Virus record (IMG/VR): IMGVR_UViG_3300031957_001682
Location: 1 to 64,000 of that record
Direction: 5' to 3' (one strand)
Source: a virus
Length of the DNA: 64,000 bases
Shown one piece after another: positions 2,127-47,000 of this stretch (position 1 is the first letter of the stretch; the number at the start of each line of letters is the position of its first letter). Under the pieces are notes generated by a model, which had not been told where the DNA came from, did not search any database, and saw only the letters and a program-made list of their open reading frames with translations. A program made the translations under genes and the position numbers.

Positions 2127-2130
2127 TACT

Positions 2131-3103: not shown

Positions 3104-3113
3104 TATATAAAGA
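3104..3113 (+). promoter_or_regulatory. putative TATA box upstream of helicase gene
   Basis: TATATAAA in the intergenic gap about 25-30 nt before ATG 3139. Confidence 0.4.
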
Positions 3114-3138
3114 ACAAAAGAAAAAGGAAGTGAGAACA

Positions 3139-5180: not shown

Positions 5181-5184
5181 AGAC

Positions 5185-10533: not shown

Positions 10534-10547
10534 ATCAAGCCTCATGA

Positions 10548-11195: not shown

Positions 11196-11530
11196 TAACA
11201 ATTCCACCTTTTTAGTGATGCGCCTTTAGGAGTAAGTTTACCCTTCTTGCTGGTTGCTCCTTTCATGCCACTCATTCGAGCGCAAAAAGACTTTCGCCTC
11301 TTAGCCTTTTTCGAGCCGGGTTTAAGTTTGCTCGGTTTAGTCGTTACAGGGGGTTTGAGGTTTGCTCCGCTCTTACGCTTGGCGGCGGCACGGCCTTTAG
11401 CGTTCAGTCCACCTTTTTTGCTGTGCTTGTTTGGATTGTAGCCGTGGAATGGTTTCTCTTTTTTGGCTTTTATTACAGCGAAAGCAAGGTCAGCAGGTGA
11501 GCAACAATTACAAAAATCGTAATCCGTCAT
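11195..11530 (-). CDS. small basic protein of a widespread marine phage family (GGLNAKGR...RKSFCARM...RWNC)
   Basis: Recognisable basic domain preceded by Cys-rich leader and LAFAVIKA. Confidence 0.75.
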   Translation of the reverse strand: MTDYDFCNCCSPADLAFAVIKAKKEKPFHGYNPNKHSKKGGLNAKGRAAAKRKSGANLKPPVTTKPSKLKPGSKKAKRRKSFCARMSGMKGATSKKGKLTPKGASLKRWNC

Positions 11531-23500: not shown

Positions 23501-26500
23501 CCCTTACTGTTGTCCAACCATGTACAGAAATTGCGACCACTGGCTCCGGGTACGGTGGAGTGAATAACAATTGAGTGTCCTGTGTTTCCATCAAGGTCTT
23601 CAACAACACGCCCCAAGTGTGCCCGCAAGTACCCCATGTGACTACCACGGTTTTGTGTATCAAGTGCTTCATCAGCAAACCACCACGGTGCAGGGTCAAA
23701 TATCGAACCCGTATCGGAATCCTTTGCACCGGTAGTAAGTGCATTCTTGGCTCCACCTTGATTGATAAGACGAACAATTTCTCTTGCGGCGGCTTCAATA
23801 TCAGTGACACCTTCTTTGATACCTACTTCACCACAGTCGATGGTAAGACGGCGCACGAAATCCATATTGGTCCAATGCTCAAGATGTTGCAATCGACTTT
23901 CTTCATGGTCTGCAAGTGTAAGTGCTTGTGAGCGAATACCCTTCAAGCAAAGGAAGGCGGAAATGGCTCGTGTACCATCCGGTGTGTCCATCATTGTACT
24001 GGCATCACGAAGCGAAAATGTATCGGGGTTGTTAATGAATCTTGATTTCTTCAAAGCACCAGCAAGTGTTTGTGTAGCACCAAGTGTTTTTCTCGATAAG
24101 GCATGTAAATGGTTAGCCCAGTAAGGCGAGGCTACGGCTGGTTGAACACGAGGTAAGGTACTGTCTGCAATGGTGAATGAATCACTTGTCCCTTCATTCA
24201 TAAGACCGGTATGAACATAATGCCCGTGACCTTTACCCATGAAATACGAATTGTTTGTCGTAATGAAGGTCAATGTTTGATTTGAATTGGTTGCCGTAGT
24301 GTCCTTATCAAGATACAACAAACTTGCATTGGTATCTATTTCAATAATTTTAGAACCACTCGCTATACCCGTTCCGCTTACAGTCATACCGACTGTAAAC
24401 TTATCCATTTTTGTATAACCACCGTTAGGTCGTATAATTTTATGATTACCAGCGAATAAATGAGAATTTGGTGTAAAAGTAATGGTTTGATTATTATTTG
24501 TAGCAGTTGTATCTTTATCCACTCTAAACAAAGTCCCGCTGTCAATTTGAGTAATAACTGAACCGCTTGCTACACCTGTACCACTTACACCCATACCTAC
24601 TCTTAGTAAAGAAGTTGAATCCATTTTGAGGATTTTTGCATTACCACCACCAAATGTCGAAGCCGAAGGCGAACTATTGTTATGGTTTGTATCAACAGTA
24701 GCATCTGTAAATACACTGGTAGGGGCATTATGGTCTGTATCGCATCCCAAAGTAAACGAGTTTCCTATCAGTGCTAATTTTGTTTTACCTTCTCCGGGTA
24801 TGGCATAAGAATCATGAGTCAAGAAATTACTAATCGGGTTTTCACCGCCAGCATTGGTACTCATCACATCCTCGGATGTATTACCGGCTATGTTATGCAC
24901 ATACGCACTTTCAATAAACTTGGATTGCTGGTTCCTACGCATGTATGGGTTTTCACTTGGGAAACCATTTGCTACATCTATTTGAGTAGTAAAGTAGTGT
25001 GGCGCACCACCGTTTTGTTGTATTAAGTATCGGTCAAGGTCAACAATACCATCTTTGGTGATAATGTGCCGACCAAATCCGATGTGTGGTGTAGCGGCAC
25101 TGGATTGAACCTGCATGTGCAAATCGTGGAATGCAATGAACTCACGGTCGTGCGCTACATCGAACATCAATACTCGTGCATGTCCTTTCTTAGCAAGGTA
25201 TGGGTCGAGGTAAGCAACAGTGGGTGCTTGAGATGATGATAGTCCCATTGATTCGTAGTTCAACTCAATAGTTTTGTTTACATGTTGAACAAAGTTGTTT
25301 GCAGTTTCAAGACACGAATTACCAATCAAGAAGTTTTCAATTGGTATAGAATCACGAGGGCGGTTAGCCAAAGCACCTTGCCCGCCGTTGAATCCGGTCC
25401 AAACTTGACCTTCGTTAAGCACACCACGGGACTTAGCAAACAACCCCTCGACAGCATGGGGATTGTTCATTGTCATGTTCATCCATACAGTGTCACCATT
25501 GCGTAAGCCACCTTGAGCATACGGGTACAACCAACTGCGATTGAGTACAGCATCGGGGTCATTTTCAGTGACAGTTCCGATACTCAATAGCAACGGGTCA
25601 CCACTTGCAATAGTGGTTGAATTGCCACCATAAACTCCGGTGACAGTACCACTACTCGAAGCATTAGCACTCATTACAAAAGTAGTTGCGTTGGTGATAC
25701 TAAGCACTGTTGTTGCCGCTGGTATTCTTGTTGCTCCATCACTTACAGACATACCTACACGAATGTTAGTTGTATCAGCCACAGTTGCAGTAGGTGAACC
25801 ACTTGATACTACAGTGGATAATGAAAAGGTATCAAGTGTAATTACTGTGTTTGTGGCGTGTCCACTACCAGCAAGGGGTGATTCACTGAAAGCGACCTTT
25901 CCTACATACTTAATGTTGCTATTGTCACTTACATCTTCCATGAAGATTTCATCACCCGGTCGGAGATTGATACCTACGGTGTTAGCCTGTGGCATAAGAG
26001 TAGCAGTTGCGGGTGCTAAAGAAAGAGTGGTAGCCCCTACCGCACCCGCCGCTGTAAATGTCCATTGCTCACCACCCACTGATGGTTTGAAAGTAGTCAT
26101 TATATTTTCAAAGGGGTCGGCGTAAAAAGGGTCTGTGAGTGTGTACAAAGCCCGACATGCTTTTTTCAGTCGTATTGTTTTACCTTTCATGTTTGTTGTT
26201 GAAAAACTCAAAGGGGCCATACAAACAAATTGATTTTGTGTTTCACTCGCAGTTGTGATATTTCCAAGATAAATCATTTCAATCGGTGTATCGGCAAGAA
26301 CTTCAATTACAAATACCATATCACCCTTACCAGCAAGAGGGTTATTTGAATCACTTGTATATCCCCCTTGTTTAGAAAATTGAATTTCGGGGAATACAGA
26401 CGCATCTTCAACCGTAAAATAATAAAATCCTCTATTACCAGCCGAACCATCACGGTCAGTCACTTTGTTCACTTCTAAGATAGTCGAAGATGCAGTTTTT

Positions 26501-29500
26501 GATTGAATACGAGGGGCGTGGGGATTGGTAAGTGGTCCTTCTTTGAACTCAACTGCACTCACATATTGCCGCAATCCGTAATCAAGATTGCCACCTTGAG
26601 TTTGCATGTTTGCGTTATCGTAGTAGTAAGGTGAGCGACCTTCATAATCGGATGATGGTGTAGTCACATCCGAAGCAATAGGAACGAGTGTTTCGTTTCG
26701 ATAACCACCGGCTACATAGACTAAAGCACCCACAGTAGCATCGGTAAAGAAATCATCCGAAAAACCACCAGTAAACCCACCGGATGCGGTAGTGGGTATT
26801 CGTAAATATCCAGCACCAGCCACAGTAGGGTCATTGATGTATATTGCCCATTGGTTATTCGACAAGAAAACACGACGATAGCGTGTCACATCTTTCATGT
26901 TTCGATGAGCGTTAGCAGTAGTAGTACCTTCGGCAGTTGGGAATATCTTCGGATGAGATACATACACATCAGTATGATTTGTACTCACTTTAATTTGAGT
27001 GATGGTGGCTGATGAAATATGTGCGTCGGTATTTGCATTAAATCCATACGCTGAATGAGCATTACGGTCGCTTACAGCAATATCGTTTGCACGACGACCT
27101 ACAGGGGTGGGGTTCCATGAATGGGCTGTGTAAGTAGCATCAAGGTGAATTTTCATGCTGTTATCGGGACCGGGAAATACGCTGTCCGGTGCGTGGTCAA
27201 AGAATTGCTTAGGGAAAAGTGGGATTTCGACCATTGCACGAGTGCTGGCATACTGTGTACCAAGTTGATAATCGTGATTTACTGTGTCCATACTTTGGAA
27301 CAATCGGTCATTGACTGTGCTACCGTCTTCGCAAAGGTTGTCATCATTGAAATCCGGGTCATTGTATATTTTCACACTTATTTCATACTCATTTTCTGTG
27401 GCATTTGCAAGAATACCAGTAGCGTTTAGCCACTCATGGAATGTTGCATACGCTACACCTTCTGCATCTAAAAACGACCTTTGCTGTAAAATACCCGGTC
27501 CACCGCTTGTATCAACAGTGAAATTAAATCCAGCACCAGTTTTTGAACTGTAGGCGGCACTTGCGCCGTCTGCGAGATAAATACGACCTATCTTTGGAAA
27601 ACAATATGTACCCCATGAGGCCAAATCAGTTGATTGGTTATTGAGTGGCTGAACGGACATGTAAATCCTATCGGTATCAGTATTCACCTTTACGGCTTGT
27701 ACAGCGCAGTTGCGGCGGGTTGAACCCGGTAAGCGCATCAGTAGGCTGGGGTCATTGGTAGGCTTGGTGTTGACAGCACCCTGTCCCGGTCCACCAAGCG
27801 TGACAGTGACGACAGGAGCGTTAGGCTCAATCTCTTTGACGATGTGCGAATCGGGTGAGCCGCTACCGGTGATGTTGACATTTTGATTGGCGAGTCCTTC
27901 CGCAATACCGGTCGCCGTGATTGTGATGATTTTAGTGTTGTCTTCGGGGTTTTCATCTTCCTTAATTGAGCGAATGCGTGTACGACTCATCAAGAACAAC
28001 AGCGATGCAATGCTGGGTGAGTCGCCTTCGGTAAGGTTTGTACGCATCTTTGACAGTTGATTTATTCTTGTTCTGTCCGATGGTTGTACATAAATTACCA
28101 TTGAAGTTTCGTGTGTATCTTCAAGAACATTGTCAATAATGTCAAACATTTCAAAGGTATTGCTTGCATCGCTTGTGGAGCCTTCGTCAAAAACACCAGT
28201 ACCAGTATTAGTGACAGCGGCCCCTTTGACAAATTGTATGCCTGTATCGGTGGTGTTCCTTACAGTATCACTGGATGCTGGCTCAATGCATAATTTGTGA
28301 TATGCTGAATCATGTATGCCATTGTTGTGCGAAGCAGTAAGATATTGAGGGGCTGTATTACCTTGTGCCGTGGCATCGTTAGGTGGTGTGTAGTTGACAG
28401 GACATAGACTAAAATCAACTTCACTGTCAAGTTCATATCCACCAGTGTTGTCACCAACTAAGGAGTGAGATTCTTCTAAATGAACCGACCCTGCAATTTG
28501 ACCTAAGCCCAAGAACAACACTCCGCCCGGTGAGAAAAGAGTGGTATCTTTTGATGCATCAGCCAAATCTGCTTCGATAACATCCAGTACCGTAGTTGAA
28601 CCTGTGAGTACAAAATTACCACTCGGTACAGTCTTTTCAATCATCAAGCAAGGTGTTGTTTTACCCATACTTGCACCAGTCAAGTCAATGGCGTTGTAAT
28701 GAATTTCAACATACGGTGCAAGATTGTGGGTGCTTTGAAGAGTAGGAACTTTGAGCAGTGCGATGCGACTTACGCTTTCCGGTCGCAAGTGATACAAGCG
28801 AGCGTCGTCATCTATGTCACCATACTCCGGTACTGGTCCTTTCATCATAAAAGGGCGATAATCAAAGTTAGTTCCACCAATAGCGATTGCTTGTTCCTTG
28901 CTTGCTGGTAGTCCATTGGTGACTACGAAATCAACGGCAGATGAATTATTAAACTTAGCAACATCGACTTGTGTACTTTCTTCATAAAAATCGGATAGTG
29001 CGTTCATGGCAAAAAGTCCCGCTATTCCCTTTCCTGTGTTTTCATACACCATTTCAACAATATCTGCTGAACCATCCATCTTTTGGTCAATAGCGAGATA
29101 CGATGGTGTTGGATAACGACGCATGTACTCGTGGCCGTTGATGTGTGAGAACTTGTGCCGCCCACTGTGACCCACTTGGTAAAGAGTGTCGAGTGTAGCG
29201 GGCCAAGTGACAGCAAACGGATTGTTTGGTGAGTTGTCCGTTGTAGCCATTTGTGTTGAATACACCAAGCCATGTTGAGCAAAATCACTCTCATCAAGCA
29301 CCATTTGACCTGTTTTATCAAAGATTTGGCTACCGTAGTGTGGGGGTTGATACGGCCTACCTGTGCCATTGTCAATCAACAAATCAGCATTTACAATGAC
29401 AAAATAGTTGTCAACATTTGCAGTACGAGAATGAAGAAGACCACGCTTACCACCAGTGCCGAGGATAAAATCAATGTGAATACTGCTTACAGTAATTACC

Positions 29501-30606
29501 CCTGTCGAGCCATTTATTGACTCTATTCTTGCTCTTTCCGGCGGAGATGCGTTTGGTTTTTCCGTATTCCGGTTAATCGCACCGGGGTTAATGAGAAGAT
29601 TATAAGGAGTATGTGGTATAGCAAGTGTGGCTTCTGTGCCGGGAGTGGTGACAAAATCAGTCACCTTGTAGTTCCCCATGCTGTATGGTGTGGCTGTGAA
29701 TGTAGTAGTGACACTGGTGCTGTCATACGGCTTACCAGTCAAGCGAGCGATAAGGGCTTGAGCATCAGTGGCGGCTACGGTGATTGTAGTTGTCGTACCA
29801 TCAGCGGCTACAGTAAACGCATTGAACTCGTATGACTCACTCACAATATCAAGTGGTTCTTCAAAGCGATACATACCAGTTGTTGTATCACCGTTGACAG
29901 GCACAGTGCTATCAATCATTCCCGAATCAAAATCACTGTTAAAGTGAAGTGCTTCGATAGCACCACGGAACTCTCCACCCTTTCCACCAACATACACATG
30001 CGCTGTTGAATTAACAATACTGGAATCCTTTTCAATAATCTCGCTTGCTACCCTATTACCATTGACATACAATGATACTGAACGCTGTGAAACAGCGGCA
30101 ACAACATGATACAAACCTCGATGCTTGAAGTTAAGATTGGTAGCATCGTTGTACAAGTTGGGTTCTGTGGTAGGTGGATTACCCGTTAAAAAGCGGTTGT
30201 AGGTGTCGTGTATGCCCCCAACTTCTTGTGGGGGGTACACTACCCCCTCCCACCGGGTGGAGGTCAATTTAGCGGTGCTTAGGACTACTTTTTGCGTACC
30301 GCTTGGGGTTTGAATGAAAACAGTAAATTTGGCTGGACCGGGCGTATCGACTGTACCAAACTCAAGTGTAAACTGGTCATCACGATGAGCAATCACGCCA
30401 CCGCAATCGGGAACAACCCAAGCCTCGATAGCAAATTGGTCATCGACTAAAGAATTGATAACAGTGATTTCATCACTACCACTGCCGGTTTTACCGAGAA
30501 TATCTCGTGCTGGACCAACGCTTGTAAAATTACCTTGAGGTAGCAGAATAGAATCACTAACACCATCAAAAAAGAAAGCGTTGCTTGTTCTTCCAATTCC
30601 AACCAT
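11527..30606 (-). CDS. giant 6359-aa virion/tail protein with N- and C-terminal LamG (concanavalin-like) domains and inserted beta modules
   Basis: Uninterrupted 19-kb ORF; N-terminal FDG..FAIEAWV..YHVVA..LYVNG..FRGAI; C-terminal LWLKAD..LRFDG..GEIAEIIQFNRALS; GAGGTGA SD; downstream of tape measure. Confidence 0.8.
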   Translation of the reverse strand: MVGIGRTSNAFFFDGVSDSILLPQGNFTSVGPARDILGKTGSGSDEITVINSLVDDQFAIEAWVVPDCGGVIAHRDDQFTLEFGTVDTPGPAKFTVFIQTPSGTQKVVLSTAKLTSTRWEGVVYPPQEVGGIHDTYNRFLTGNPPTTEPNLYNDATNLNFKHRGLYHVVAAVSQRSVSLYVNGNRVASEIIEKDSSIVNSTAHVYVGGKGGEFRGAIEALHFNSDFDSGMIDSTVPVNGDTTTGMYRFEEPLDIVSESYEFNAFTVAADGTTTTITVAATDAQALIARLTGKPYDSTSVTTTFTATPYSMGNYKVTDFVTTPGTEATLAIPHTPYNLLINPGAINRNTEKPNASPPERARIESINGSTGVITVSSIHIDFILGTGGKRGLLHSRTANVDNYFVIVNADLLIDNGTGRPYQPPHYGSQIFDKTGQMVLDESDFAQHGLVYSTQMATTDNSPNNPFAVTWPATLDTLYQVGHSGRHKFSHINGHEYMRRYPTPSYLAIDQKMDGSADIVEMVYENTGKGIAGLFAMNALSDFYEESTQVDVAKFNNSSAVDFVVTNGLPASKEQAIAIGGTNFDYRPFMMKGPVPEYGDIDDDARLYHLRPESVSRIALLKVPTLQSTHNLAPYVEIHYNAIDLTGASMGKTTPCLMIEKTVPSGNFVLTGSTTVLDVIEADLADASKDTTLFSPGGVLFLGLGQIAGSVHLEESHSLVGDNTGGYELDSEVDFSLCPVNYTPPNDATAQGNTAPQYLTASHNNGIHDSAYHKLCIEPASSDTVRNTTDTGIQFVKGAAVTNTGTGVFDEGSTSDASNTFEMFDIIDNVLEDTHETSMVIYVQPSDRTRINQLSKMRTNLTEGDSPSIASLLFLMSRTRIRSIKEDENPEDNTKIITITATGIAEGLANQNVNITGSGSPDSHIVKEIEPNAPVVTVTLGGPGQGAVNTKPTNDPSLLMRLPGSTRRNCAVQAVKVNTDTDRIYMSVQPLNNQSTDLASWGTYCFPKIGRIYLADGASAAYSSKTGAGFNFTVDTSGGPGILQQRSFLDAEGVAYATFHEWLNATGILANATENEYEISVKIYNDPDFNDDNLCEDGSTVNDRLFQSMDTVNHDYQLGTQYASTRAMVEIPLFPKQFFDHAPDSVFPGPDNSMKIHLDATYTAHSWNPTPVGRRANDIAVSDRNAHSAYGFNANTDAHISSATITQIKVSTNHTDVYVSHPKIFPTAEGTTTANAHRNMKDVTRYRRVFLSNNQWAIYINDPTVAGAGYLRIPTTASGGFTGGFSDDFFTDATVGALVYVAGGYRNETLVPIASDVTTPSSDYEGRSPYYYDNANMQTQGGNLDYGLRQYVSAVEFKEGPLTNPHAPRIQSKTASSTILEVNKVTDRDGSAGNRGFYYFTVEDASVFPEIQFSKQGGYTSDSNNPLAGKGDMVFVIEVLADTPIEMIYLGNITTASETQNQFVCMAPLSFSTTNMKGKTIRLKKACRALYTLTDPFYADPFENIMTTFKPSVGGEQWTFTAAGAVGATTLSLAPATATLMPQANTVGINLRPGDEIFMEDVSDNSNIKYVGKVAFSESPLAGSGHATNTVITLDTFSLSTVVSSGSPTATVADTTNIRVGMSVSDGATRIPAATTVLSITNATTFVMSANASSSGTVTGVYGGNSTTIASGDPLLLSIGTVTENDPDAVLNRSWLYPYAQGGLRNGDTVWMNMTMNNPHAVEGLFAKSRGVLNEGQVWTGFNGGQGALANRPRDSIPIENFLIGNSCLETANNFVQHVNKTIELNYESMGLSSSQAPTVAYLDPYLAKKGHARVLMFDVAHDREFIAFHDLHMQVQSSAATPHIGFGRHIITKDGIVDLDRYLIQQNGGAPHYFTTQIDVANGFPSENPYMRRNQQSKFIESAYVHNIAGNTSEDVMSTNAGGENPISNFLTHDSYAIPGEGKTKLALIGNSFTLGCDTDHNAPTSVFTDATVDTNHNNSSPSASTFGGGNAKILKMDSTSLLRVGMGVSGTGVASGSVITQIDSGTLFRVDKDTTATNNNQTITFTPNSHLFAGNHKIIRPNGGYTKMDKFTVGMTVSGTGIASGSKIIEIDTNASLLYLDKDTTATNSNQTLTFITTNNSYFMGKGHGHYVHTGLMNEGTSDSFTIADSTLPRVQPAVASPYWANHLHALSRKTLGATQTLAGALKKSRFINNPDTFSLRDASTMMDTPDGTRAISAFLCLKGIRSQALTLADHEESRLQHLEHWTNMDFVRRLTIDCGEVGIKEGVTDIEAAAREIVRLINQGGAKNALTTGAKDSDTGSIFDPAPWWFADEALDTQNRGSHMGYLRAHLGRVVEDLDGNTGHSIVIHSTVPGASGRNFCTWLDNSKGQSQYKPQFLVGHGGRFRNFWCQPDETTGENMHPAPMPINKHGRPFAPITTLREYVTQEDADDNFLSNGDFATRKSNLSNNQKRSISAFNGSGMIANTINDESFESQSPSKTLVEGLRTGTQAFGRVNFGGMVASGIPGFAPDAGVWGLGSRSDAGLFDTRYSDAITTGDADTSSIPNYSGYVTDSQVDNVGDSQLYGFQFEDHRGNTYGVRFIYRRMGDNFSNDNTALPPTLDNEICVYFDDRDVGQGGLTIGNHMLGFGDATGRIDTTGVLTEASYRGNRWNGVPAPSVGIDASITLTSSQLTVVLHPPFDTGTVGDGVVGNHPDVLGYLGFPKTNGLIQINDPFTGTTAPGAVGNTFSYTHRSQNDNDGTHIFYGVSGDGFTSSHYVANTAEGTEIHDVATVQPHASNNSMRVLLSPRINWTTLVTDELMAAVTAAAINHTSPSSTLNFDCRGMYAADGRTFGQWGVAGDAIKIRAHNPFRNTKPLANMFEATLHKDWGIHAAHLEYGEYTTLKPTTAGWAITSTDAINKPYSDNELDANRRMDVGYLPYTVLQLRSKGRGYNANTATPVLVDSANTPVSVNSWRRNLKGEDYTSINGDHILPCLNNPILLFESYTHSGNVFLSKTNKIAHVMIPAGQEADALGDADDADTHAKAPSFGEIMTFRYPTATGIGVAGLESIKGATSHTSLTNPYGDGHSFWKTHFYQDITDDFVLTRFSLTNFANIEFEAICGYRSHGSVDSEPIIYFRGARDSIDHSIPLYFGGGFSGVTLDINDGTQNDYSSFYTHPYSGGPTGTAGIQNANEISGSFAMVDCNALLAFFPGTALLNQHRGSINSPVSNKNSILSPDLRGGNLDDNFALLNAAAAGDVRARYSAGIVRQQPVPLVLRFAHPTARYHDSQPIVDATCDYNNDPTITMDSTAQLVVGMTVTGTGIPDGATVASITNATTFELSVATTGGSVSNGTLTFNYIENKTTYLVYGPGQAFPFTEDDNSNAAVEPHPGYVVTTGNTWSKVPHSKYLPNEITNSDNLYGPPDSAYQTARNRYHWRTTLNWSPPQGIPNVGYLQQRPEHGSHYGEVFTNPTSGKITSDNKGDYWKAHPYKHSATAYYGIAMSADMTFHMDGGYHPGGSWLDNQVSFNPPNPNSNYRYALEAWNQVNATAYRVSGVMGKAILEGANSETALNFDTDYIVVDGTRCQNGEELATIIGQAINENPGKGALKAMGGTFLPSMGNASRQDRYGWVEMTFEAYTNAASTGPTVNADTLIGNLYAGTLGTAINSRNYIQASISGATQEELEQLPMSGWVRTPTGGRDHTVGGGHSDPSYHAGPTWGCYHSREVFSDSGTFKVRFYLAPNRISGLPLLEDRTTWHNKCQGATLTYPSPGHVIDPNPPSQPEPIEYPLPSQLYVWSKAGVHRFNNENETPRSHMTQAHFGGLVDAIDRTRPVGAVGWAGERYSYLNSLKVDTSAFTDATCDYNNDPTIAMDSTAKLKVGMLVSGTGIPTGAYVRSITSSTGFELSASTTGGSVTNGTLTFTTNLYAAGKGAWHPKMGFTPYGSSASCMSTLGHLPSSYPMYNSPESSPRVNGQEASNTSYDVALTTPYTWNIGLAGNASWYTNYDFTDVESAKDIFSAKPAHMREIDTDTNFVLNPKLHHQQGVFSRAMLVISNESELALVAKTDRDGIKSTGDWLSVVSKTRAGVAAATAITFAGTTRWDERFHNAERYIAPANAGPNVEALIATGTATPTADVPNGAYVLHTALTGDQDTNLFNAEPCFAETGDLFFDTDISPGSVQLEVATDVLRNITKELTIASADAEIDNYDYTETTVDGVTGPEFWLGDTNGYKLAQRTPAKNFSVEHVVWKRMDGGNLSLPASNARGLGAVPFVTRVAGGNAYTTGEKLYGNNRFTFESTNSAMFPIIQAQELSHPQLAARHPDLLRNILEIPNEEIQFESITVIDDTGQEHKIEGGSPFGTIIRTFTQLSDRGAQGLAPAVSGSGISPNLKIRLPDPDSIPGNLVIRSGFDRLQAYQTESMGTGGMMTKSTVEHLFNTDSVSPNLGPTYSDHNWEHLKQGIDSPESTMSGWQSSTGNAPLETAYELHDRTLYFHVTKMGNTNTHKHPVIYSHADGVVNHELTGVSFSGTTLTVNTTVNSAVYDSTFGNKERVGERRFLRLYNPTTDEGGVASFTGISGSTFTGCVGDETFNKLVLSSITALKVVPSYYIPAGSTRFYGSRRIRDHAEVSGNSPDMAHTHYVNYSVTAEEAMTGYSIYSKPQLTPAPIPRMGHHFVNATMAMLPGHWAHPAYQGLYDKHRACRSATLQSREFEILKESYDMDDLITSTPDQFPTYDPLLVFGSLTATPSGPSDIHGGGFSLMFETKLRNDGYGVLASEGQAGVVNAAGGHTIVLEAAGTYTLKEHFPDPAEVGAYQIIIQPNMHSSQFIGYHENGPANDIPNQSVNELTSQQVALVVGIREPDATTGAYSLVLANATMADVRGCEVFINELMIDHDPDHGSHFTNIPPLMLYNPLGVQSTESPAFVRRSLPYTTGIFADASPGYTINIPWWSIVHKVGPDDADGSRFNHLSLHRLDNYYEFLRANAGSVAAQITLAGYPSNYPDLYSEILENISLTPVCTFVSLTSSTVIKVDDARGFPKQPYYGMLLEYTDATGTRRTHSYTERSGYDSSNMNKPLQFTIVANSDFTSNLTVGTKIRLTRAYDFRPANTILSETETSVLAHSIDNLITGTRDTNSLHMADAFLCLWHPNLGRPHTFYSDASRTWLNPLTDRAINQKPLNSMPEHFETVHYHDATYYASMGPFALRMKTAMPPTEAQSTYYTATSASVSSTTVTATGTIMAGWPTSGTNTVYVNSGSEEEIFTYTGGGAGGTTLTGCVNVKGTPLTTMASGNHSLRYYKTADLAADGSHTRQVVSQTADHTITTNGGEGIGDGAYIFVDGHMYQVNGTVAEGGTNIVVFDILPPQITVGSVIYTGADGTPQTAQTIDTTIGTGLMQGGQSDSSDTATKSMLNHFWPSGSRGGPLVSRLDGYAYVSSSWEYPRDYGFDGPIWTDGDYDADNSDYAPSSGISKSSYDGISNPTRPRPFGYRFGLRQPYNKPQWSMYGLRALRETAITATNASVAYKHGPFVQEETQTWTYAGGNGSSNPTFPNTYTGIMERQTNFSGMLGVDKPEWQVRYSDGVRFTRPFGCPVRTLRNSATVLRDWWGDGNGKGLDSIESAAKYYLVDWWGNTRGEDVRRFPVRSFGIRPSWDAGDAYEYDRRNNRTPYQRIHNNGKHLVNLKGLTNAADSALDISATVPRFGGRLNNTNSSDSTTLVDVFMPSNAQRVGDMGNGRGIRYPTQFNEDVLTALSEPIHTTGLVLSHHTAEPILNDGFIRARNDTLQADEVPRGISSRLEIAEDGLLKPEAVVSDRMENIVGDSPHKDAISRSSPRIGLDTENLQGVDTNQIIINTEAHSLHTDRNVGQRVVLQGGMQTGSQTIGNYDLTALDFGGQPQGGVLRMSHTSNFNPLGGTYLAETRNYLSPIDDTEWGGIPTSGMVLWLKADSLDLTDGESVSTWADTSGNNRNFTQSTSSKKPTYIASESDFNNMPVLRFDGGDKLELAFDANLNTNQFTIFFVGAVNSDNNANQLGYESRSASPVTRSGYNLYADMTGSNNQWEYWAGADTTWKALKSATGSITLNTPDIITMQISGGDGAGASATQLLRVDGTQIGTQSANFYKSTADAQNIGTLNTSSAPYVGEIAEIIQFNRALSTTELQQVEGYLAEKYGITAASAWKSSNPYQTDTNGHVRTNVTDKKVTYMMRPVRLLDKQHAEMFRSNLNLHSSAPQYGSNYFGATAGGKYGLYVYDVDNGKASVGSYIRATNPDTNPPYTPAYYMDISASDTVPMSQGPKIIGTGDSGFDSSKIDNEVTRVIISENTLEHYRADASRRRTSVESDESVVRKDFTVQPRFSQSLHPKGHKGDVDYNSTDHTGDGA
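18895..19092 (-). repeat. ~65-aa beta module copy (FTDATCDYNNDPT..GM.VSGTGIP..NGTLTF)
   Basis: Closely similar in translation to 20593-20784. Confidence 0.85.
20593..20784 (-). repeat. ~65-aa beta module copy (DATCDYNNDPT..GMTVTGTGIP..NGTLTF)
   Basis: Closely similar in translation to 18895-19092. Confidence 0.85.
24265..24756 (-). repeat. two beta module copies, one (24475-24711) nested inside the other
   Basis: Two module starts (FTLGCDTDHN, FTDATVDTNHN) followed by two module ends (DKDTTATNNNQTITF, DKDTTATNSNQTLTF). Confidence 0.7.
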
Positions 30607-38531: not shown

Positions 38532-39368
38532 TCAATAGCCTAAATCCTGTGAATAGTCGGGGTTATTACGAGCATTTTCCGTCATTTCTTCGAGAGAATT
38601 AAACCCACCAGTTGGGAACATTTCTGCCGGGAAACGAAGTCTTGGTGGTTGGCCTTCGCTTTGTATCATCATTTGTGCTGGACAGTTCGCATTCATACAA
38701 ACCATTTTTCCTTCACCGGGGTGAACTTCTTCCAACTTTCCTTGACAAACTTTACAATTTGAAGCAACAACATTATGCCTCGCTCGCACTTCTTCGGGAA
38801 TCTCCACACCCGCTACCGAAGGATAGCCAAATTTCAAAATATCCCAAGCATCACGCATAGGAACTTGGCGAGAGGTCATGATGCGGCGCATGTGTTCAGC
38901 CTCGGCATCGGGGTTGAACTCTTCTTCGGGCGGCATACCATCACGGAGTTTACCTTCACTGTCAAACAAATTAGGCATTCGTTTTTTATCAGCATCTATG
39001 TCTTCTTGGCTTTCATTAGGCGTTGTACCTTCTTTCATAGCCTGTTCTAATTCTTCTTGTCTTAGTGCGAAGTCTGCCTCCGCTTCACCGCTATAATCGG
39101 GTTCACTCAACGAACTTTCCAAGTTTTGCCCCTCAAAGGGTACTCTTTCGTTCATGAACTTGAGTCCGTGTTCCTCCGGGTTCGCTACAGCGTCGTACAT
39201 GAGTTTGTCACGGGCTTGAGTAAACTGTTCACCTGCGGCATCACCACCAGCACCACGAAGTTCGTTAGCGACTTTTTTGTTTGCCCACCGTTGAAGGCGA
39301 ACTTCTTCACCATCTGCGGTAAGCACCTTTTGTCGGTGGGGTTGCATTGCTTTAATCAAAATCTTCAT
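38532..39368 (-). CDS. hypothetical protein with internal AW..LK tag and C-terminal Zn ribbon
   Basis: MKILIKA start; PMRDAWDILK followed by CKVC...CMNANC. Confidence 0.7.
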   Translation of the reverse strand: MKILIKAMQPHRQKVLTADGEEVRLQRWANKKVANELRGAGGDAAGEQFTQARDKLMYDAVANPEEHGLKFMNERVPFEGQNLESSLSEPDYSGEAEADFALRQEELEQAMKEGTTPNESQEDIDADKKRMPNLFDSEGKLRDGMPPEEEFNPDAEAEHMRRIMTSRQVPMRDAWDILKFGYPSVAGVEIPEEVRARHNVVASNCKVCQGKLEEVHPGEGKMVCMNANCPAQMMIQSEGQPPRLRFPAEMFPTGGFNSLEEMTENARNNPDYSQDLGY

Positions 39369-39573
39369 AGTATCACATCAGTATTGTGGTTCAAAACCGG
39401 GTTGTTGCATCGCCGCCCTACAATGAGGACATGCGTTATGGGCGTTGCGGCCCATACCTGCGGGTGCATCAAAATGACCGCCGCAATTCTTACATTCAAA
39501 ACCGACTATTTCATCTTCACGGGCTTTCAAAACTTTCCATGCCTCATTCATTGCATTCTTCATAGTATCACAT
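39362..39573. repeat. 17-bp direct repeats (39362-39378 and 39557-39573) flanking one small gene
   Basis: TCTTCATAGTATCACAT present twice, exact. Confidence 0.9.
39378..39563 (-). CDS. AW..LK-tagged Zn-ribbon microprotein
   Basis: MKNAMNEAWKVLKA then CKNC...CPHC. Confidence 0.75.
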   Translation of the reverse strand: MKNAMNEAWKVLKAREDEIVGFECKNCGGHFDAPAGMGRNAHNACPHCRAAMQQPGFEPQY

Positions 39574-39867
39574 TCTGTTCTTTTCGTCACGACTTGCTAA
39601 GTTGTATTCCATTGGTTTGTCACAACTACCACAAGTGGCTCTCCACATAAAATGAAGGAAGCCACAGTGTGTACAGCGTGTACCCGAACCTATGTTCAGC
39701 ACATCACCGATATTACGATTACGGTTGCGTTGTGAAGATGTAATACCCTTGAGGGGGTTTTGCTCGTCAGTCACAGCGGCAATGCTGTACTCACTATCGT
39801 TCTTGACACCTTGCTTACTCGACCGCACCATGTCGCTAAGGTCGAGAGTTCTTGCATCAAATCCCAT
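39568..39867 (-). CDS. Zn-finger protein
   Basis: CTHCG...CGSC; GAGGTGA SD. Confidence 0.75.
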   Translation of the reverse strand: MGFDARTLDLSDMVRSSKQGVKNDSEYSIAAVTDEQNPLKGITSSQRNRNRNIGDVLNIGSGTRCTHCGFLHFMWRATCGSCDKPMEYNLASRDEKNRM

Positions 39868-40082: not shown

Positions 40083-40093
40083 CGTTAGTCACC

Positions 40094-40420
40094 TCAAGAG
40101 CGGCGACCAATTGCGATGAATGTACCTGCTTTGACAGGGAAACCACCGTTGCCAGCGGCAATGAGTAGGGAAGTACCGTTGATAAGACACAAGTTGTTGA
40201 AGTGAACATCTTGTGCATCAGCCGCACCGCCTGTGTCAGTGATTCCCACTGCTGAAAGCGCACCAGTACCGTTAGTGCCAGCAAAGTCAATGCTTGCGAG
40301 TTGAGAACTCAAATCAATAGTGAGTGTTCCTGTGTCACCTGCGGTATAACTACCTGTGATAATCATTCGGTCACCGAAAACGGTTGGTCTTGGGTCAATT
40401 GTTGCTGTGCTTGCCGCCAT
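40094..40420 (-). CDS. putative capsid decoration protein
   Basis: 108 aa, G/A/T-rich beta protein downstream of MCP; GGAGA SD. Confidence 0.5.
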   Translation of the reverse strand: MAASTATIDPRPTVFGDRMIITGSYTAGDTGTLTIDLSSQLASIDFAGTNGTGALSAVGITDTGGAADAQDVHFNNLCLINGTSLLIAAGNGGFPVKAGTFIAIGRRS

Positions 40421-40810: not shown

Positions 40811-41440
40811 TCAAACAACGAGCATCATCAAGACGACTGATTCAGTGCCACCGCTCACATTCTTCAAGATGAGTGGTGTTCGCTTGTAAAGTTCTGTGTT
40901 GTCGTTGGTTTGCACTGGTGTGTTGCCAGTGAGTGTAATCGAAGTTGCTGTGAGTTCCTTGATAGTACCAAGATGCGCCCCCTCAAGAGTGGTGATAACA
41001 TCACCAGCACTGAATTGAGTGGTTGCATCAACAGTATCAACGGTAGCGACACTTTGACTTGTCAAAAAGTGTGAGCCATCGTTAATCAAAACACCTGTTG
41101 CAACGGATTGCATCATCAATGGGTCGAGTGAAGCACTGTCACCCAACCATTGGCAACTTGTGTGAACAATGTCACTGCAAGAACCGGAAAGGGTAAGAGT
41201 TGCGTTGTCAGTAGCGTTTGACCACTTAGCGACAATCAATCGTGGGTTGTGAACTTGGCCGGAACCATCGGAGTTCGATGCTTGGAAACCGGTAATGCTA
41301 CCGGGGTATGTTCCGTTAAAGCCGTCAAGCCACTTTGTTTTGTCTTGGTCAACACCGCCCTGCAAGGGTAGGTCCATCATTACATGGATTTCGCCCGCAG
41401 ATGGTGTGTATGTCAAATTTCGGTATGTAATTGCTGCCAT
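40811..41440 (-). CDS. putative capsid cement/decoration protein
   Basis: Directly downstream of MCP; shares its upstream translation element; beta-rich. Confidence 0.55.
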   Translation of the reverse strand: MAAITYRNLTYTPSAGEIHVMMDLPLQGGVDQDKTKWLDGFNGTYPGSITGFQASNSDGSGQVHNPRLIVAKWSNATDNATLTLSGSCSDIVHTSCQWLGDSASLDPLMMQSVATGVLINDGSHFLTSQSVATVDTVDATTQFSAGDVITTLEGAHLGTIKELTATSITLTGNTPVQTNDNTELYKRTPLILKNVSGGTESVVLMMLVV

Positions 41441-41476
41441 ATTATGTCATCTCCATTATTTTTTTCTCATCCACCA

Positions 41477-42577
41477 TCACTTAAGGTCACGAATTGAAGC
41501 GTGTCCTCCGAAGAAAGTCGTCCATAGTTCTCCCATAGTTCGGTACATTCCTTCTTGTCCAAGACGGTTGATTGCGAATGGGTCACCAGTTTCAATACCA
41601 CTCTCGAAGTATTGGGTCGGGATAGCGGTTGAGAAGTACAAGTAGTCCGTATCAAGGAAGTACATGCGGCTCAAGGTGTCTGCTTGAACATCCTTAGATG
41701 GGATGATTGGGACACCGTTGTAGGTAGCGACGATGAATCCGGCTTCGATACCGGGAACACCCTTCACACCGTTGTAGGTAGGAGTGATTCGCTTCTCTTC
41801 CATGAATCGCTGTTGCGACTGTAGGAGTTGTTGAAGGCGCATCAAAGTGTCATATCCTGTAAGGATGACCTTTGGGTTGCCACCACGAGTCCAGCACTTT
41901 TGGAAGATGGTGTCCAAGTGGTCGAGGGAAAGAGTTCGGTCAGTACCGGAGTTCTCATCGTGTTCTGCAAGGGACCAAGAGTTTGCACTTCGGTCGATTG
42001 AGTAAATGTCTTCGTTAGCGGAAGCAGATGCACCGGTTGTGATTCGGTCAAGTGACTCGAAATCGTTGCCAGCGGCGGTAGCCTTGTCAACAAGAAGCAT
42101 CTTGTTGATATGCTCGGCGTGGTGCTTACCCATTTCTTCCTTGAGGATTGAGCGAATGTCGCCCAGTCCGTCATCCTTGTCAGCAAGGAACATTGCGGTT
42201 TCGCTCATGTCGAAGGTGTGAACCACAGTCTTCGGCTTTGCGGCAATGTGTTGGAAGGTAGGCTTGGTGGTGTCCGGTAGGGTTGCGTTTTCTGCAACAC
42301 CGCCGCCAACAGTAAACGAAGGTCGTGCAGTGATGACTCGCCATCCACTGCGTTCCCACGGTCGCTTTGGTAGGATTGAAAAGGCGTTGAACTCTTGGTT
42401 CAATTGGGACCAAACTTTGCGACCATAAATCGCTTGGTAAGTACCAGCAGTTGTGGACAGCATAGGGCTGTCAGCCTTGAGCAACTCACTACCGGAGTAG
42501 GAATAGCCCATTGCGTTCCCTGCGCCGTAGTAGTATCGTTCCATGTCAGTTACGCTTCGGATATAATCTCGTGCCAT
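41477..42577 (-). CDS. major capsid protein (HK97 fold)
   Basis: Follows protease; AIYGRKVWSQLN, GGVAENA, FIVATYNGVPII, YFLDTD; C-rich high-expression codon usage. Confidence 0.88.
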   Translation of the reverse strand: MARDYIRSVTDMERYYYGAGNAMGYSYSGSELLKADSPMLSTTAGTYQAIYGRKVWSQLNQEFNAFSILPKRPWERSGWRVITARPSFTVGGGVAENATLPDTTKPTFQHIAAKPKTVVHTFDMSETAMFLADKDDGLGDIRSILKEEMGKHHAEHINKMLLVDKATAAGNDFESLDRITTGASASANEDIYSIDRSANSWSLAEHDENSGTDRTLSLDHLDTIFQKCWTRGGNPKVILTGYDTLMRLQQLLQSQQRFMEEKRITPTYNGVKGVPGIEAGFIVATYNGVPIIPSKDVQADTLSRMYFLDTDYLYFSTAIPTQYFESGIETGDPFAINRLGQEGMYRTMGELWTTFFGGHASIRDLK

Positions 42578-42608
42578 ATATTTCACTCTCCATTATTTTT
42601 TTTGTTTT

Positions 42609-44024
42609 TCAAGCCCCTCGTGTTACCGATGCGGCGAGATTGTGTACTTCATCCCAAGACATGTTGCCCAAGTCTTGTGTGGATGGGACTTCAACATTAG
42701 ATGTGGAAGCCGACTTTTGAATTGATGTGCCGGAAATGGCGATGTTGTCAATTCGCTCACTTAGAGCGTTGATGGACTTCATCACTTCATTGATTGGGGC
42801 ACGAGCATCGAACTCGGCTTTTTCAGCCTCATGCTTTGCGATTGCCATTTCTTTGCTCAATCGGTTAGAGAATTGAGATTCAAGGTCACCACGGAATCCT
42901 TGTTCCAATGCGGCGGCTTTGTACACTTCGTATGCGGCTTCAATATCACTTGAAGAAACATTGCTGTGGTTAAGGTAGCCCTTGCTCATCGAAACAGGTC
43001 CGAGTGCGCCGGATGGGGTCTTACCACCGGATGAGGTGATAGCGTTAATTGCACCAGTGGAAGGTGAACCGTTTTCTTGTCCACGGCCACGGACTTGACC
43101 AGCAAAGTAGTCAGCACCGTCAACAGCGTCGGGATTGTCAAAGCCACCAAGTTGTGCCTTCTCCAAGTTGTCGAAGTGAGAGCGTGCTTGCATTGTGTCA
43201 ACACCAGCAGATTTGAGGGTGTCTTCCATCCAGTTCAAGTATTCAGCGGTGATTACATCGCTGTATTCACTCTTTGCGTAGTTCATCTTATCATCATCAT
43301 TAGTCATAGGTTCATCATCCTTTTTGTCTTCGTCTTTTTTGTCAGCGAATGGGTTTTTAGATTCTTTCTTTTCCTCTTTGGGGTCGGAATCATCTTTTTT
43401 GTCGTTCATGTGTTCTTTGAGGCCGGGGGGCATTTCGCCTTTTTCCATTGCGTCAAGTCGGGCTTCGAGTCTGCTCATAACATTGTTTAAGTCATTTTCT
43501 GTGGTCATGTTGGTGTCCTCCTTTAGAATGCGAAATTGTGCTTCGGGGTTAATTCCTTTTTCACAAATCGTAATCTCATGTAGTTCCATCTTACTAATTT
43601 CTTGGTAATCTCCATGTTCTCCATCGGACTTTCGCACTCTTTTGAACGCTTGTCCTCCAATGGAAAATCCTTGCAAATTACCCTTACGGATTTCTGCGGC
43701 CACTTCACGAGCCTTTTCAATGTCGTTGCGAAGTGAAACAACCACAAACATACCAGTATCGTCAACTTCGGATTTCCACATCCTTCCGTTTGAGTCAACA
43801 TAGGAGTCAATAACTTCTCCCACTTGAATGTTAGAGTGAGCGAGTTGCACATTGCGGAACTTGTCACTCTTCATAAATCCGCCAAAAGCATCCTTTAGTG
43901 CTGAACGGGTAATGAGGTCGCCTTGCTTGTCCACCAGTTCAACTGATGCGTAGCCAGCGATAACCATGTCGGAACTGCCCTTGATGAGAGCAATGCCGGA
44001 GGTAGGTCGCTTGAGGGACAACAT
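42609..44024 (-). CDS. prohead protease (HK97-type) fused to scaffold domain
   Basis: IAGYAS..VDKQGD, catalytic H (LAHS), GFSIGG (Ser), LHEITI...INPEA; acidic coiled-coil C-terminus; GGAGGGT SD before ATG 44024. Confidence 0.9.
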   Translation of the reverse strand: MLSLKRPTSGIALIKGSSDMVIAGYASVELVDKQGDLITRSALKDAFGGFMKSDKFRNVQLAHSNIQVGEVIDSYVDSNGRMWKSEVDDTGMFVVVSLRNDIEKAREVAAEIRKGNLQGFSIGGQAFKRVRKSDGEHGDYQEISKMELHEITICEKGINPEAQFRILKEDTNMTTENDLNNVMSRLEARLDAMEKGEMPPGLKEHMNDKKDDSDPKEEKKESKNPFADKKDEDKKDDEPMTNDDDKMNYAKSEYSDVITAEYLNWMEDTLKSAGVDTMQARSHFDNLEKAQLGGFDNPDAVDGADYFAGQVRGRGQENGSPSTGAINAITSSGGKTPSGALGPVSMSKGYLNHSNVSSSDIEAAYEVYKAAALEQGFRGDLESQFSNRLSKEMAIAKHEAEKAEFDARAPINEVMKSINALSERIDNIAISGTSIQKSASTSNVEVPSTQDLGNMSWDEVHNLAASVTRGA

Positions 44025-44045
44025 TACCCTCCGATTCATTGTCAT

Positions 44046-44055
44046 GGTATATAGA
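44046..44055 (-). promoter_or_regulatory. putative TATA box for the protease-capsid operon
   Basis: TCTATATACC on the - strand in the gap upstream of the protease start. Confidence 0.4.
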
Positions 44056-44064
44056 ATGATACTA

Positions 44065-47000
44065 TTACACTGAAAGAGTTGGAGTATCGTTTTCATCGTC
44101 ATAAACGATGGACTCGTCTTCATCGGTCTTCATTTCAATGTGTTTTATTGGCTTTTTCTTTTTTTCTGCGGAATCGGGTTTTATTTCCCCTTCATCCGGT
44201 CTTTTCTTTCCGTCATAATCCGGTAAGTTGCTTTCTTCGGTTAATTTTGTAGGACCGCTTGGAGATTCTATAGGTGTAGCCATATCAATTCCTAAGCCTC
44301 TCGGTCCAGTCCAAGTCAATTTTTCTTTAGCAAGTTGGTCTAAAGCCCTACTGATTACTTCAAGTGCCTTTTTTGTTGAAGGTTTAAGCAAACGATTGTC
44401 GTCTTTTTCATCCAACACCCCTGCCGATTGCTCATCTTGTTTTTTACGACTCGGTACATCTTTTTCATCCATTTCTAACTTCATAAGATGACCTTCAATC
44501 ATCAATGGAGCAACGGTATGCCAATACGGGTGAAGACTTTCTGCTAATGTAATTGAGTAATTTGACTTTCTCAAATCACCCAAAGCGGAAGAAGGTGTGT
44601 GTAAATACCAATTTTCTCCAATTCTTTCAACTTGATATGTCACTGTGTCGATATTTTTCAAAATTACTTGAATAGTATTGTTGTGATATTCTAAATCGTG
44701 TGGTATGAGTATAGGTGAAAATGATTTTGTAAGTAAGTCGAGGGATTCTGTGCTGGCCGCACCTTCACCTTCACCTTCACTTTCTATTTGTCCCACTTGT
44801 ACATTGTACACATCTCGACTTTTTCTTCGTTTTTTAGAAACACCAGTGATAGTTGCTCGAACAATATCGCCAACTTTGAATGCCTTTTGTTGATTGTGTG
44901 CTGTTCCTACATCCATGTAAAATTTGTTTTTATGTGTCACAGCCCGGTTGCCCAATGATTCACCATCAAGAATTGGACCAGCACCAAGTTGGTATGAGAA
45001 TGGACCATTACCCTTACGGTTAAGGATAATAAAATTGAAGTCACGAGTTTTACGCAGTAATAACCACTTTGGATGACGACGCTCTCCTTTCATGTATGTA
45101 GATTTGTTGTCACGCAGAAGTACAACTTTATGTTCATTCTGCAAAATTTTAACAGCATCTTCAAGTCCTTCTTCATCAGTCATTTTAGTGTCATGCGGGC
45201 CGGGAATAATGACATTTTCATGGCTATCAAACTGCCCTCTTAGCACTTTCATGCGTTCATGCATCAACATTTCACTCACATTAGTATCATCATAATTGAT
45301 AATGTCGATGATGTTCAAATCTTTTTCACCTACAATACCATCAATAACAAAATTATTGTCATTTAGTTCTGCAAGGCTTTCTTTGAAGGCTTTCTTCAAT
45401 CCTACTTTACGGCCATTCTCGTCGTAAGTGGTAATTTCATTGTCTTTTTGTACGATAATAACACGCTTACCATCGTACCATTTACTTACAACCCAAGAAC
45501 CACTGAACCCTCTTAAGTGTTCAAGGTCGCTTAAATCAAAGATACGATGCATGGGTCGTACAGGTGGAACCCATTCAGCATCACTACTCTTTGTTAAAAG
45601 AACATCCGGGTTCAAAAGAGAAGCAATATATTCTCCCATCTCCCCCAAAGCAATACGGTCTTCTGCTGTTTCGTAAGTTAATGGATTCATTGCTAAAGCC
45701 GGTGATGTGGCATTTTGTACTGGTATGCTTTCTAAACTTTGAAGCACTTGACTACCTACTTCTTTCCCGTGTAAACCAGTAATTGCATCTTGCCATGTAT
45801 TTTGAAACAACTTTGGTTCAGTAAAAGTTCCGACTATGGGTTCACCATCACTTGAAAAATCAATTCCAAATGTTGATTGTTGAGGATTAGCCACTGAATG
45901 TACTACACCGGCTCCGGTGTGTGTTGGAATAATACCATAGGTATCGGGGTTTATTCCACCTACAGGTACAGGTTCTTCATTAAAACCAACAGACAGTGTG
46001 GTTTTTTCTTGAGGTGCTATATTATCAATGTTAATTTGATTTTGATTCAAGGCAACAATACTATCAAGTCGGTTTTTTGAAGCACGAGTCTTGTATTTTT
46101 TCTCCCCCGAACCAACACCAAAACGATTGTGAATGTCAAATTGCTTACCACCAGCATCAAAGAACGATAAACCAGCAGGTGACATAAGTGAGTCATCGGC
46201 TACAGTGCGTACAACATTGCTTGTAATACTGTGAACTGGGTGTTGCTTCCATTTTTCGTGTTTTGGTTGTGCGTTTTCCATTGCAGTGTGGAAGCCTTCT
46301 TTTACACTGTCTTGTAAAAATTCATCATCACCAGCAAGGTGATGCAAAAAGAAATCATCATCAAATTTACCGCTTTCCATAAGTTGGCCCACGGTACTCA
46401 CATGCAAGGGTTGGTTTGTATTGTTAGATTCGTCAATTATTCGTTGAACATGTGAAGCCATGCGGTTTTTTTGTTCTGTGGTTTTTGGAGTAAGACCAAG
46501 ACCTTCTAAAACTTCATCGGTGTTCATAGTACCGTCAACGGTAAAAATTTCGTCACCTTGCAGGTGTTCGGTTATTTTTGGATGTACACCCTTTTGTCGT
46601 TGGGGTACTTTTTCAGTTGTATTACCAAAACGGTATGCTTGAGTTTTGATACCGTGTACATCATGCGGTACTATACCCAACATTCTTTCAGCCTCAAACA
46701 TCAGTCGATTGTGATTTGCAAGGAACTGTTGAGGGTCTGTTTTTGCTAATTCTTCACTAAAGTGATTTGGGTCATGTTCCAATACACGAGGTAGTAAAAA
46801 TTGTGCGGCTTGAAATACAGACTCACGGCTTGCTTTGAGTAAGTTATTGAAAACTTTAGCATCTGCCTCAACAGGATTGGTTTTACCAAGTGCCCTCTTT
46901 GCGGCTTTACCTTGTAGTTGATTAAGTTCAACTGTGAGTTCTTGTATTTCATTCATAATGCGCTTTGCCCCTTCGGGACTAAACTCTCCTTGTGCCGCAG

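Follow-up and report, generated by a model that had tools for sequence, protein, structure and literature searches.

The morons of lambdoid phages, known from the work of Hendrix and colleagues, are extra genes that have their own promoter and terminator and often a base composition differing from that of their surroundings. A second kind of insert has been described in mycobacteriophages. In LRRHood, 29-bp direct repeats enclose a 1.35-kb insert comprising genes 43 to 46 (Pope et al. 2011, PMC3029335); one repeat is located at the 3' end of a gene and the other ahead of the gene that follows, and relatives have a single copy (PMC3029335). In Island3, gene 68 is a small inserted gene whose end repeats the end of the upstream gene (PMC3029335). 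Pope et al. (2011) weighed gain by recombination within the repeat against loss by recombination between the repeats (PMC3029335). Direct-repeat-flanked inserts at gene boundaries are already known in mycobacteriophages, and the microgene described here, a gene of 61 codons enclosed between two copies of a translational junction, is a further example of them. The features by which inserts of the LRRHood and Island3 type can be recognized, namely, collinear relatives without the insert, a flanking repeat, and the placement of that repeat, were all found at the locus.

The window, that is, the whole stretch of 64,000 nucleotides analysed here, comprises positions 1 to 64,000 of the IMG/VR virus record IMGVR_UViG_3300031957_001682, which measures 107,632 bp, contains direct terminal repeats, and is rated complete. 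The locus belongs to a head-gene block whose gene order starts with the prohead protease (42609 to 44123) and the major capsid protein (41477 to 42577) and continues, after the major capsid gene, with several small genes, the 99-aa gene, the microgene, the 278-aa gene, and the gene of a 520-aa virion protein. Nucleotide and protein searches of cultured phages gave no match to either the locus or the 99-aa protein. The major capsid protein shares 35 to 37% identity with those of the haloarchaeal siphoviruses HVTV-1, HCTV-1, and HCTV-5, and its other matches are found in viruses assigned to methanogens, with no bacterial phage among them. Furthermore, a gene for a family B DNA polymerase is present at genome positions 105037 to 106107, and the sequencing runs in which the sequence occurs come from marine or seawater metagenomes. 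Viruses of Marine Group II archaea, known as magroviruses, are marine, contain PolB, and have a major capsid protein that resembles those of haloarchaeal siphoviruses only, at about 33% identity (PMC5434244). The virus under study shows the same capsid protein similarity, marine source, and PolB. It belongs to a family of marine tailed viruses of roughly 100 kb, the hosts of which, judging from these characters, are probably Marine Group II archaea. We also noticed that the tail region (11527 to 30606) consists of one open frame of 6359 aa, spanning 19 kb.

The features of the locus, in the order in which the minus strand is read, are the following.

39568 to 39867, minus strand: upstream 99-aa zinc-ribbon gene, kept in 243 IMG/VR relatives
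39557 to 39573, minus strand: upstream copy of the 17-mer, made of the last sense codon of the 99-aa gene plus TGA, the TACT spacer, and the ATGAAGA that opens the microgene
39378 to 39563, minus strand: 61-aa microgene including its stop, with a dN/dS of about 0.12 between its two types
39369 to 39563, minus strand: insertion/deletion unit of 195 nt, made of the microgene ORF and stop plus the 9-nt relic TGTGATACT
39525 to 39554, minus strand: AW..LK tag AMNEAWKVLK (residues 4 to 13 of the microgene product), a motif found nine times within ORFs of the genome
39420 to 39494, minus strand: four-cysteine zinc ribbon CKNC ... CPHC (residues 24 to 48), a sub-threshold match to Pfam Zn_ribbon_8
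39362 to 39378, minus strand: downstream copy of the 17-mer, made of the final base of the microgene stop, TGTGATACT, and the ATGAAGA that opens the 278-aa gene
38532 to 39368, minus strand: downstream 278-aa gene, with a conserved N-terminal part ending in a tag, followed by a variable tail

The 17-mer ATGTGATACTATGAAGA occurs on the minus strand in two exact copies, at 39557 to 39573 and at 39362 to 39378. No further copy was found in the 64-kb window, even when up to two mismatches were allowed, and the number of matches expected from dinucleotide shuffles is 0. When the complete 107,632-bp genome was searched with the 15-nt core of the repeat at no more than two mismatches, the matches were confined to the two junction copies. 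The microgene extends from its ATG at 39563 to 39561 to its stop at 39380 to 39378, and its start is separated from the start of the 278-aa gene by 195 nt. Ten of the 17 bases of the repeat correspond to the end of the 99-aa gene and the spacer, and the other seven (ATGAAGA) are common to the starts of the two genes. The duplicated part of the junction is formed by the last codons of the 99-aa gene, its stop, and the spacer, and the TGTGATACT of the downstream copy is a relic of the same gene end and spacer. Thus, the duplication reported in the initial annotation was confirmed, with no further copy in the genome, as was its assignment of the 99-aa stop and the microgene ATG to the upstream copy and of the next gene's ATG to the downstream copy. 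That annotation had spoken of a stop/SD/start junction, of which the stop and the start are present but the Shine-Dalgarno sequence is not. In particular, both starts are preceded by GTGAT only, with no GGAG-type box, and the junction is therefore better termed stop/spacer/start; most of the neighbouring genes have a GGAG or GAGGTG box 6 to 9 nt ahead of their ATG. As a consequence of the duplication, the microgene and the 278-aa gene both keep a stop a few bases before the ATG, without a Shine-Dalgarno sequence, and from this arrangement it follows that the two genes are probably translated by termination-reinitiation coupling.

The state of the site in related viruses was read from assembled contigs. 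With the 278-aa protein as the query, IMG/VR yielded 26 related loci, in 23 of which a homologue of the 99-aa gene directly adjoins the 278-type gene. A second search, conducted through the more conserved 99-aa gene, gave 243 relatives; among the best 80 of them 78 loci were readable, and in all 78 the gene next to the 99-aa gene was either of the 278 type or the microgene. The 195-nt unit is missing from L003 to L006 and from about 75 other relatives. It is present in the same layout in L035, L034, and L028/L012 and as a shorter variant in L032/L033 and L037. In L003 to L006, both flanks are about 98.5% identical to those of the window, a single 17-mer is found, and the 99-aa gene adjoins the 278-aa gene. 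For L003 and L004 in particular, the alignment with the window gives 98.5 to 98.7% identity on each side and a clean 195-nt gap, which is the sole difference at the junction, since the two flank alignments overlap by exactly the 17-mer. The occupied L028 and the empty L019 form a second pair, with flanks that are 100% and 98% identical. Among the loci fetched, the exact 17-mer occurs twice in L035 only, at the 195-nt spacing seen in the window. It is present once in 21 locus entries, which are mostly empty alleles (L003 to L006, L013, and others) and include the occupied L029, L032, and L034 as well. Moreover, the viral metagenome X14 contains contigs of both alleles, and its unitigs end at the repeats, which is what a branch of the assembly graph would produce. 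The empty-site allele that had been predicted, with one 17-mer and a seamless junction of the 99-aa and 278-aa genes, was thus found in near-isogenic relatives. Alternative cassettes at the same site, which the initial annotation had proposed to look for as well, were not found among the 78 readable loci (from the best 80 of 243 relatives), so that the site is not a general cassette dock. As far as the window and L003 are concerned, the difference may be read as a gain in the former or as a loss in the latter alike.

The microgene was found on nine contigs, including the window, and in four junction backgrounds; in a collection of 5.8 billion proteins, it is represented by four clusters only. 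The four junction types are the following.

Type A, carried by the window, L029, L034, and L035: 99-aa gene end before the microgene AGAATGTGATACT, flanking repeat of 17 nt
Type B, carried by L011/L028/L036 and L012: 99-aa gene end before the microgene AGGTTGTAGAT, flanking repeat of 7 nt
Type C, carried by L032 and L033/L038: 99-aa gene end before the microgene AGGCTGTGATATT, flanking repeat of 14 nt (in L033)
Type D, carried by L037: 99-aa gene end before the microgene AGGTTGTGAAATA, flanking repeat of 12/14 nt

In every carrier, the microgene is preceded by the local form of the 99-aa gene's end and followed by TGA-TGTGAT(A/G)(C/T)T-ATG, in which the ATG is the start of the 278-type gene. 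The length of the repeat differs by lineage because the relic behind the microgene is constant, while the upstream junction is local. This 9-nt relic equals the normal A-type end of the 99-aa gene, that is, the last two bases of the final codon, TGA, and TACT, and the A-type end (TGTGATACT) is common among the empty relatives. It follows that the unit that is present or absent comprises the ORF and the relic of an A-type (or C-type) junction. Judging from the relic, lineage B must have received the unit from an A-type (or C-type) background. Furthermore, repeat lengths of 17, 14, 12/14, and 7 nt argue against a target duplication of fixed length or a defined att-like site.

The microgene is a real gene under purifying selection. 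Its two types differ at about 16% of their nucleotides and both keep the C-terminal QPGFEP motif; the four cysteines are invariant, and the frame is intact in every variant. Between the window and L028, the microgene is 96% identical at the nucleotide level with a dS of 0.195, whereas the 99-aa gene is 68% identical with a saturated dS of 4.4; between L032 and L037, the corresponding values are 98% with a dS of 0 for the microgene and 82% with a dS of 0.97 for the 99-aa gene. The low dS of the microgene against the high dS of the 99-aa gene implies that each type was exchanged at least once between diverged backgrounds. Exchange between diverged lineages, by all indications always into the same position and with the relic attached, is what these comparisons show. 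As far as the start codons themselves, the flanks of lineage B are identical to those of L019, an empty relative, and since the boundaries lie within a few bases of these codons, it is reasonable to suppose that recombination took place at or very near the junction. The sharpness of these boundaries may instead reflect later recombination that eroded imported flanks. The initial annotation had described a cassette that entered, or could leave, by recombination at the junction. The movement between lineages and the position of the lineage B boundaries agree with that description; a general cassette dock and a fixed-length or att-like site are not supported. Taken as a whole, its observation stands and its interpretation stands in part, as the empty site, the movement, and the lack of an integrase were borne out and the alternative cassettes were not.

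The explanation that we favour, and that we consider fairly probable, is that of an optional accessory gene that arrived by a short-homology insertion in which the junction was copied again and that was then spread and lost by general recombination, with no dedicated integrase. The optional 61-aa gene is part of the head-gene operon, where its ORF and the 9-nt junction relic together form a 195-nt unit. As far as can be reconstructed from the end product, the first arrival would have been a short-homology event, either illegitimate or by template switch, that copied about 10 nt of the target a second time; the remaining 7 nt (ATGAAGA) may be merely shared, since the microgene family and the 278-type gene both start with Met-Lys. 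Later spread between co-infecting relatives, and loss, would have proceeded through general recombination, with crossovers placed either in the conserved flanks or within the short homology of the junction.

It is possible, on the other hand, to read the same alleles as the outcome of loss and not of gain. The microgene would then be ancestral, and precise deletions between the direct repeats, recurring by slippage during replication or by single-strand annealing, would have produced the empty alleles. Repeats of 14 to 17 nt that are 195 nt apart are good substrates for such a deletion, the empty allele is exactly what it would leave behind, and the distant free-standing homologues P0005, P0008, P0014, and P0036 indicate that the gene family is old. 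However, the carriers amount to about 6 of about 244 IMG/VR relatives, so that very many independent losses would be needed. Moreover, a near-identical gene between synonymously saturated flanks would call for lateral transfer anyway, and in lineage B the repeat measures 7 nt only, with a downstream junction of the A type, which is foreign to that lineage. We therefore regard a history of loss as rather unlikely.

In the microgene product, an N-terminal AW..LK helix is followed by a four-cysteine zinc ribbon, which bears out the description of the gene as tagged and of its product as a zinc ribbon (AMNEAWKVLK at residues 4 to 13; CxxC...CPHC present). The match to Pfam Zn_ribbon_8 (PF09723, FmdB-type) covers residues 22 to 52 and scores 25.8 bits (E value of 1.1e-5), below the curated cut-off of 34.4 bits; PF09723 is listed for a 70-aa form of the protein in the precomputed table of the protein collection. 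An AlphaFold model with a mean pLDDT of 75 places a helix at residues 2 to 17, followed by a beta hairpin and two short helices, and no structural neighbour of this model was found in the PDB or BFVD at an E value of 0.001 or less. The head of the product conforms to the motif [PA][MF]xxAWxxLK, by which tagged modules are recognized. Sequences of the form AW..L[KE] with a [PA][MF]xx-like left context occur in nine in-ORF copies in the genome, versus about one expected in shuffled sequence, all nine on the minus strand (genome positions 10518, 11174, 38849, 39542, 49905, 55551, 55939, 73270, and 74408). The tag is N-terminal, within a few residues, in five proteins and internal elsewhere, as is PMRDAWDILK in the 278-aa protein. 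In the two tagged genes at 9916 to 10545 and 10548 to 11207, no repeat at the starts was found beyond near-identical 10-mers (9/10) in the stretches inspected.

The full HMM search retrieved the distant free-standing homologues already mentioned, all of which start with MK(A/P)(M/F)..AW..LK, and P0006, a metagenomic protein of 523 aa. P0006 is highly charged and has no family assigned; its C terminus consists of the tag PISMAWALLK and a zinc ribbon clearly related to that of the microgene, and its N-terminal part is unrelated. A word-based search for longer fused forms had no result. The module of tag plus zinc ribbon thus exists both free and fused. A scan with P0036 as the query gave no match, and with P0008 it gave a match at the level of the tag only, in L126. 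In this IMG/VR virus, positions 1960 to 5328 contain five consecutive genes that start with (MK)AFDKAW.[IV]VK and have unrelated bodies, which looks like an array of tagged genes. Since its layout matches that of the other tagged modules of the genome, the microgene product is probably another tagged, exchangeable virion-associated module, and we infer that the tag may link it to the virion.

It is tempting to carry this reasoning further and to see in the duplicated junction a working part and not a scar. The microgene would in that case be a plug-in with neither a promoter nor an integrase, in which the junction copy keeps both genes coupled and the tag delivers the protein to the virion, and tagged cargo microgenes of marine archaeal viruses would, more generally, enter operons by short-homology recombination at stop/start junctions. 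We put this forward as a speculation that is unlikely to prove correct.

The 278-aa gene itself is a composite. Its conserved N-terminal part ends in the tag PMRDAWDILK (38832 to 38861), and its C-terminal tail (38535 to 38831) differs between relatives. In the 278 family as a whole (window 38532 to 38861; L002 to L121), at least ten distinct tails follow the conserved tag PMRDAWSILK; they include several unrelated zinc ribbons and a long acidic tail, and in some cases the tail is missing. On their downstream side, the tails are delimited by the conserved block TGAGGGAGGGTAATGTATGCC, which contains the stop, the SD, and the start of the 520-aa gene, and they can be described as variable segments between two conserved anchors, the tag-coding DNA and the stop/SD/start block. 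We considered whether the microgene supplies a zinc ribbon in trans where the 278-type tail is without one, and rejected this, since the association is not significant: a tail without a zinc ribbon is found in 5/7 occupied versus 3/14 empty alleles in a small sample (Fisher p = 0.056) and in 5/7 occupied versus 12/28 empty alleles in a larger one.

Variation of other kinds was seen around the locus. Compared with L003 and L004, the window is a dense mosaic within 6 kb, in which stretches of 98% identity alternate with unalignable replacements (40093 to 40417, the 108-aa gene; 40837 to 41435, the 209-aa gene; 38971 to 39096, an inner piece of the 278-aa gene). In the place of the 209-aa gene, L003 and L004, 98% identical to the window, have unrelated sequence. 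A 31-nt block composed of an A-run, a GGAG box, and an ATGGCA start occurs at 41435 to 41465 and at 42572 to 42602 with 81% identity; one copy stands in front of the major capsid gene, and the other in front of the 209-aa gene that follows it.

Yet another possible origin is one in which the microgene was born in place by a tandem duplication of the junction and the 278-aa gene, followed by an internal deletion that left the start, the tag, and a zinc-ribbon tail. Such a duplication would explain the doubled junction, both genes open with ATGAAR, and a profile comparison of the microgene family with the 278 family gives a probability of 87% (E value of 3.8e-6), with residues 4 to 56 aligned to the tag and the zinc-ribbon tail. 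However, most of the alignment falls on the AW..LK tag, a generic element with nine copies in unrelated proteins of the genome, and the match is therefore weak evidence for descent from the 278-aa gene. Furthermore, no tail of the 278 family resembles the zinc ribbon of the microgene, the N-terminal part of P0006, the nearest fused form, is unrelated, and the distant free-standing homologues, which have the same N terminus, argue for an older, independent gene. Birth in place thus appears improbable to us.

The statement that no integrase is visible in the window can be extended to the whole genome. Tyrosine (PF00589) and serine (PF00239) recombinases gave no match in the complete genome, and neither did RecT, ERF, RecA, and Rad51; the control genomes matched in both searches. 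Inverted repeats of at least 8 nt, including attC-like ones, were absent from 39330 to 39610. The microgene unit is present in one copy in the genome, and its GC content is 47.3%, versus 46 to 48% in the flanks. These results bear on the possibility of a dedicated mobile cassette, whether integron-like, transposon/MITE-like, or of the homing type, in which an enzyme recognizes the junction and the 17-mer is a target-site duplication. The exact flanking repeat, the precision of the empty site, an insertion point common to all four backgrounds, and the promoter-less character of the cassette are what one would expect of it. Nevertheless, none of the recombinase families searched for is found in the complete genome, terminal inverted repeats are absent, the genome has a single copy, the duplication varies from 7 to 17 nt, and one cargo only is seen at the site, so that we consider a dedicated cassette highly improbable. 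In its individual forms, an integron-type cassette was rejected for the absence of an integron integrase and of an attC-like inverted repeat and for the single cargo across 78 loci, and a transposon or MITE with target-site duplication for the absence of inverted repeats, the single copy, and the repeat length of 7 to 17 nt. A moron was rejected on the basis of length and GC content, as the unit adds only 4 nt upstream and 9 nt downstream of the gene and has a GC content like that of its flanks. A 195-nt tandem duplication within the 3' part of the 99-aa gene can be dismissed as the source of the microgene, since the profile probability is 5.6% and the two are not similar at the nucleotide level outside the 17-mer.

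The locus records with unusual clarity how a tailed virus adds a very small gene inside a tight operon and leaves the operon unbroken. Its boundaries are known to the base, both alleles are found in several lineages, and the insert has moved while keeping a piece of its first target. With the microgene, the AW..LK-tagged modules also gain a free-standing member, in viruses of abundant uncultured ocean archaea. Since the phenomenon is already documented in phages, the value of the locus lies in a well-resolved example and in a handle on the tagged-module system, and not in a new principle.

As in LRRHood and Island3, an extra gene is present with respect to close relatives, a short repeat occupies the extreme 3' end of the gene upstream and recurs before the next gene, the relatives without the insert have a single copy of the repeat, and no mobile-element enzyme is associated with it. 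Different from these two phages, one 61-aa gene makes up the whole insert, and the stop, the spacer, and the start codon are all covered by the repeat; moreover, both alleles are found in several diverged lineages, the relic is carried along, and the virus is marine and probably archaeal. With morons, the microgene shares the condition of an extra, dispensable gene between two genes that are adjacent in relatives, but its unit has no room for a promoter or a terminator and has the same GC content as the flanks. The tails of the 278-aa gene resemble systems in which variable segments lie between short conserved junction anchors; different from such systems, the anchor of the microgene is duplicated around the insert and not merely conserved from genome to genome. 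Finally, the AW..LK helix found at the head of other, unrelated tagged modules in the genome also opens the microgene product; the mobility of the microgene depends on the junction repeat and not on the tag.
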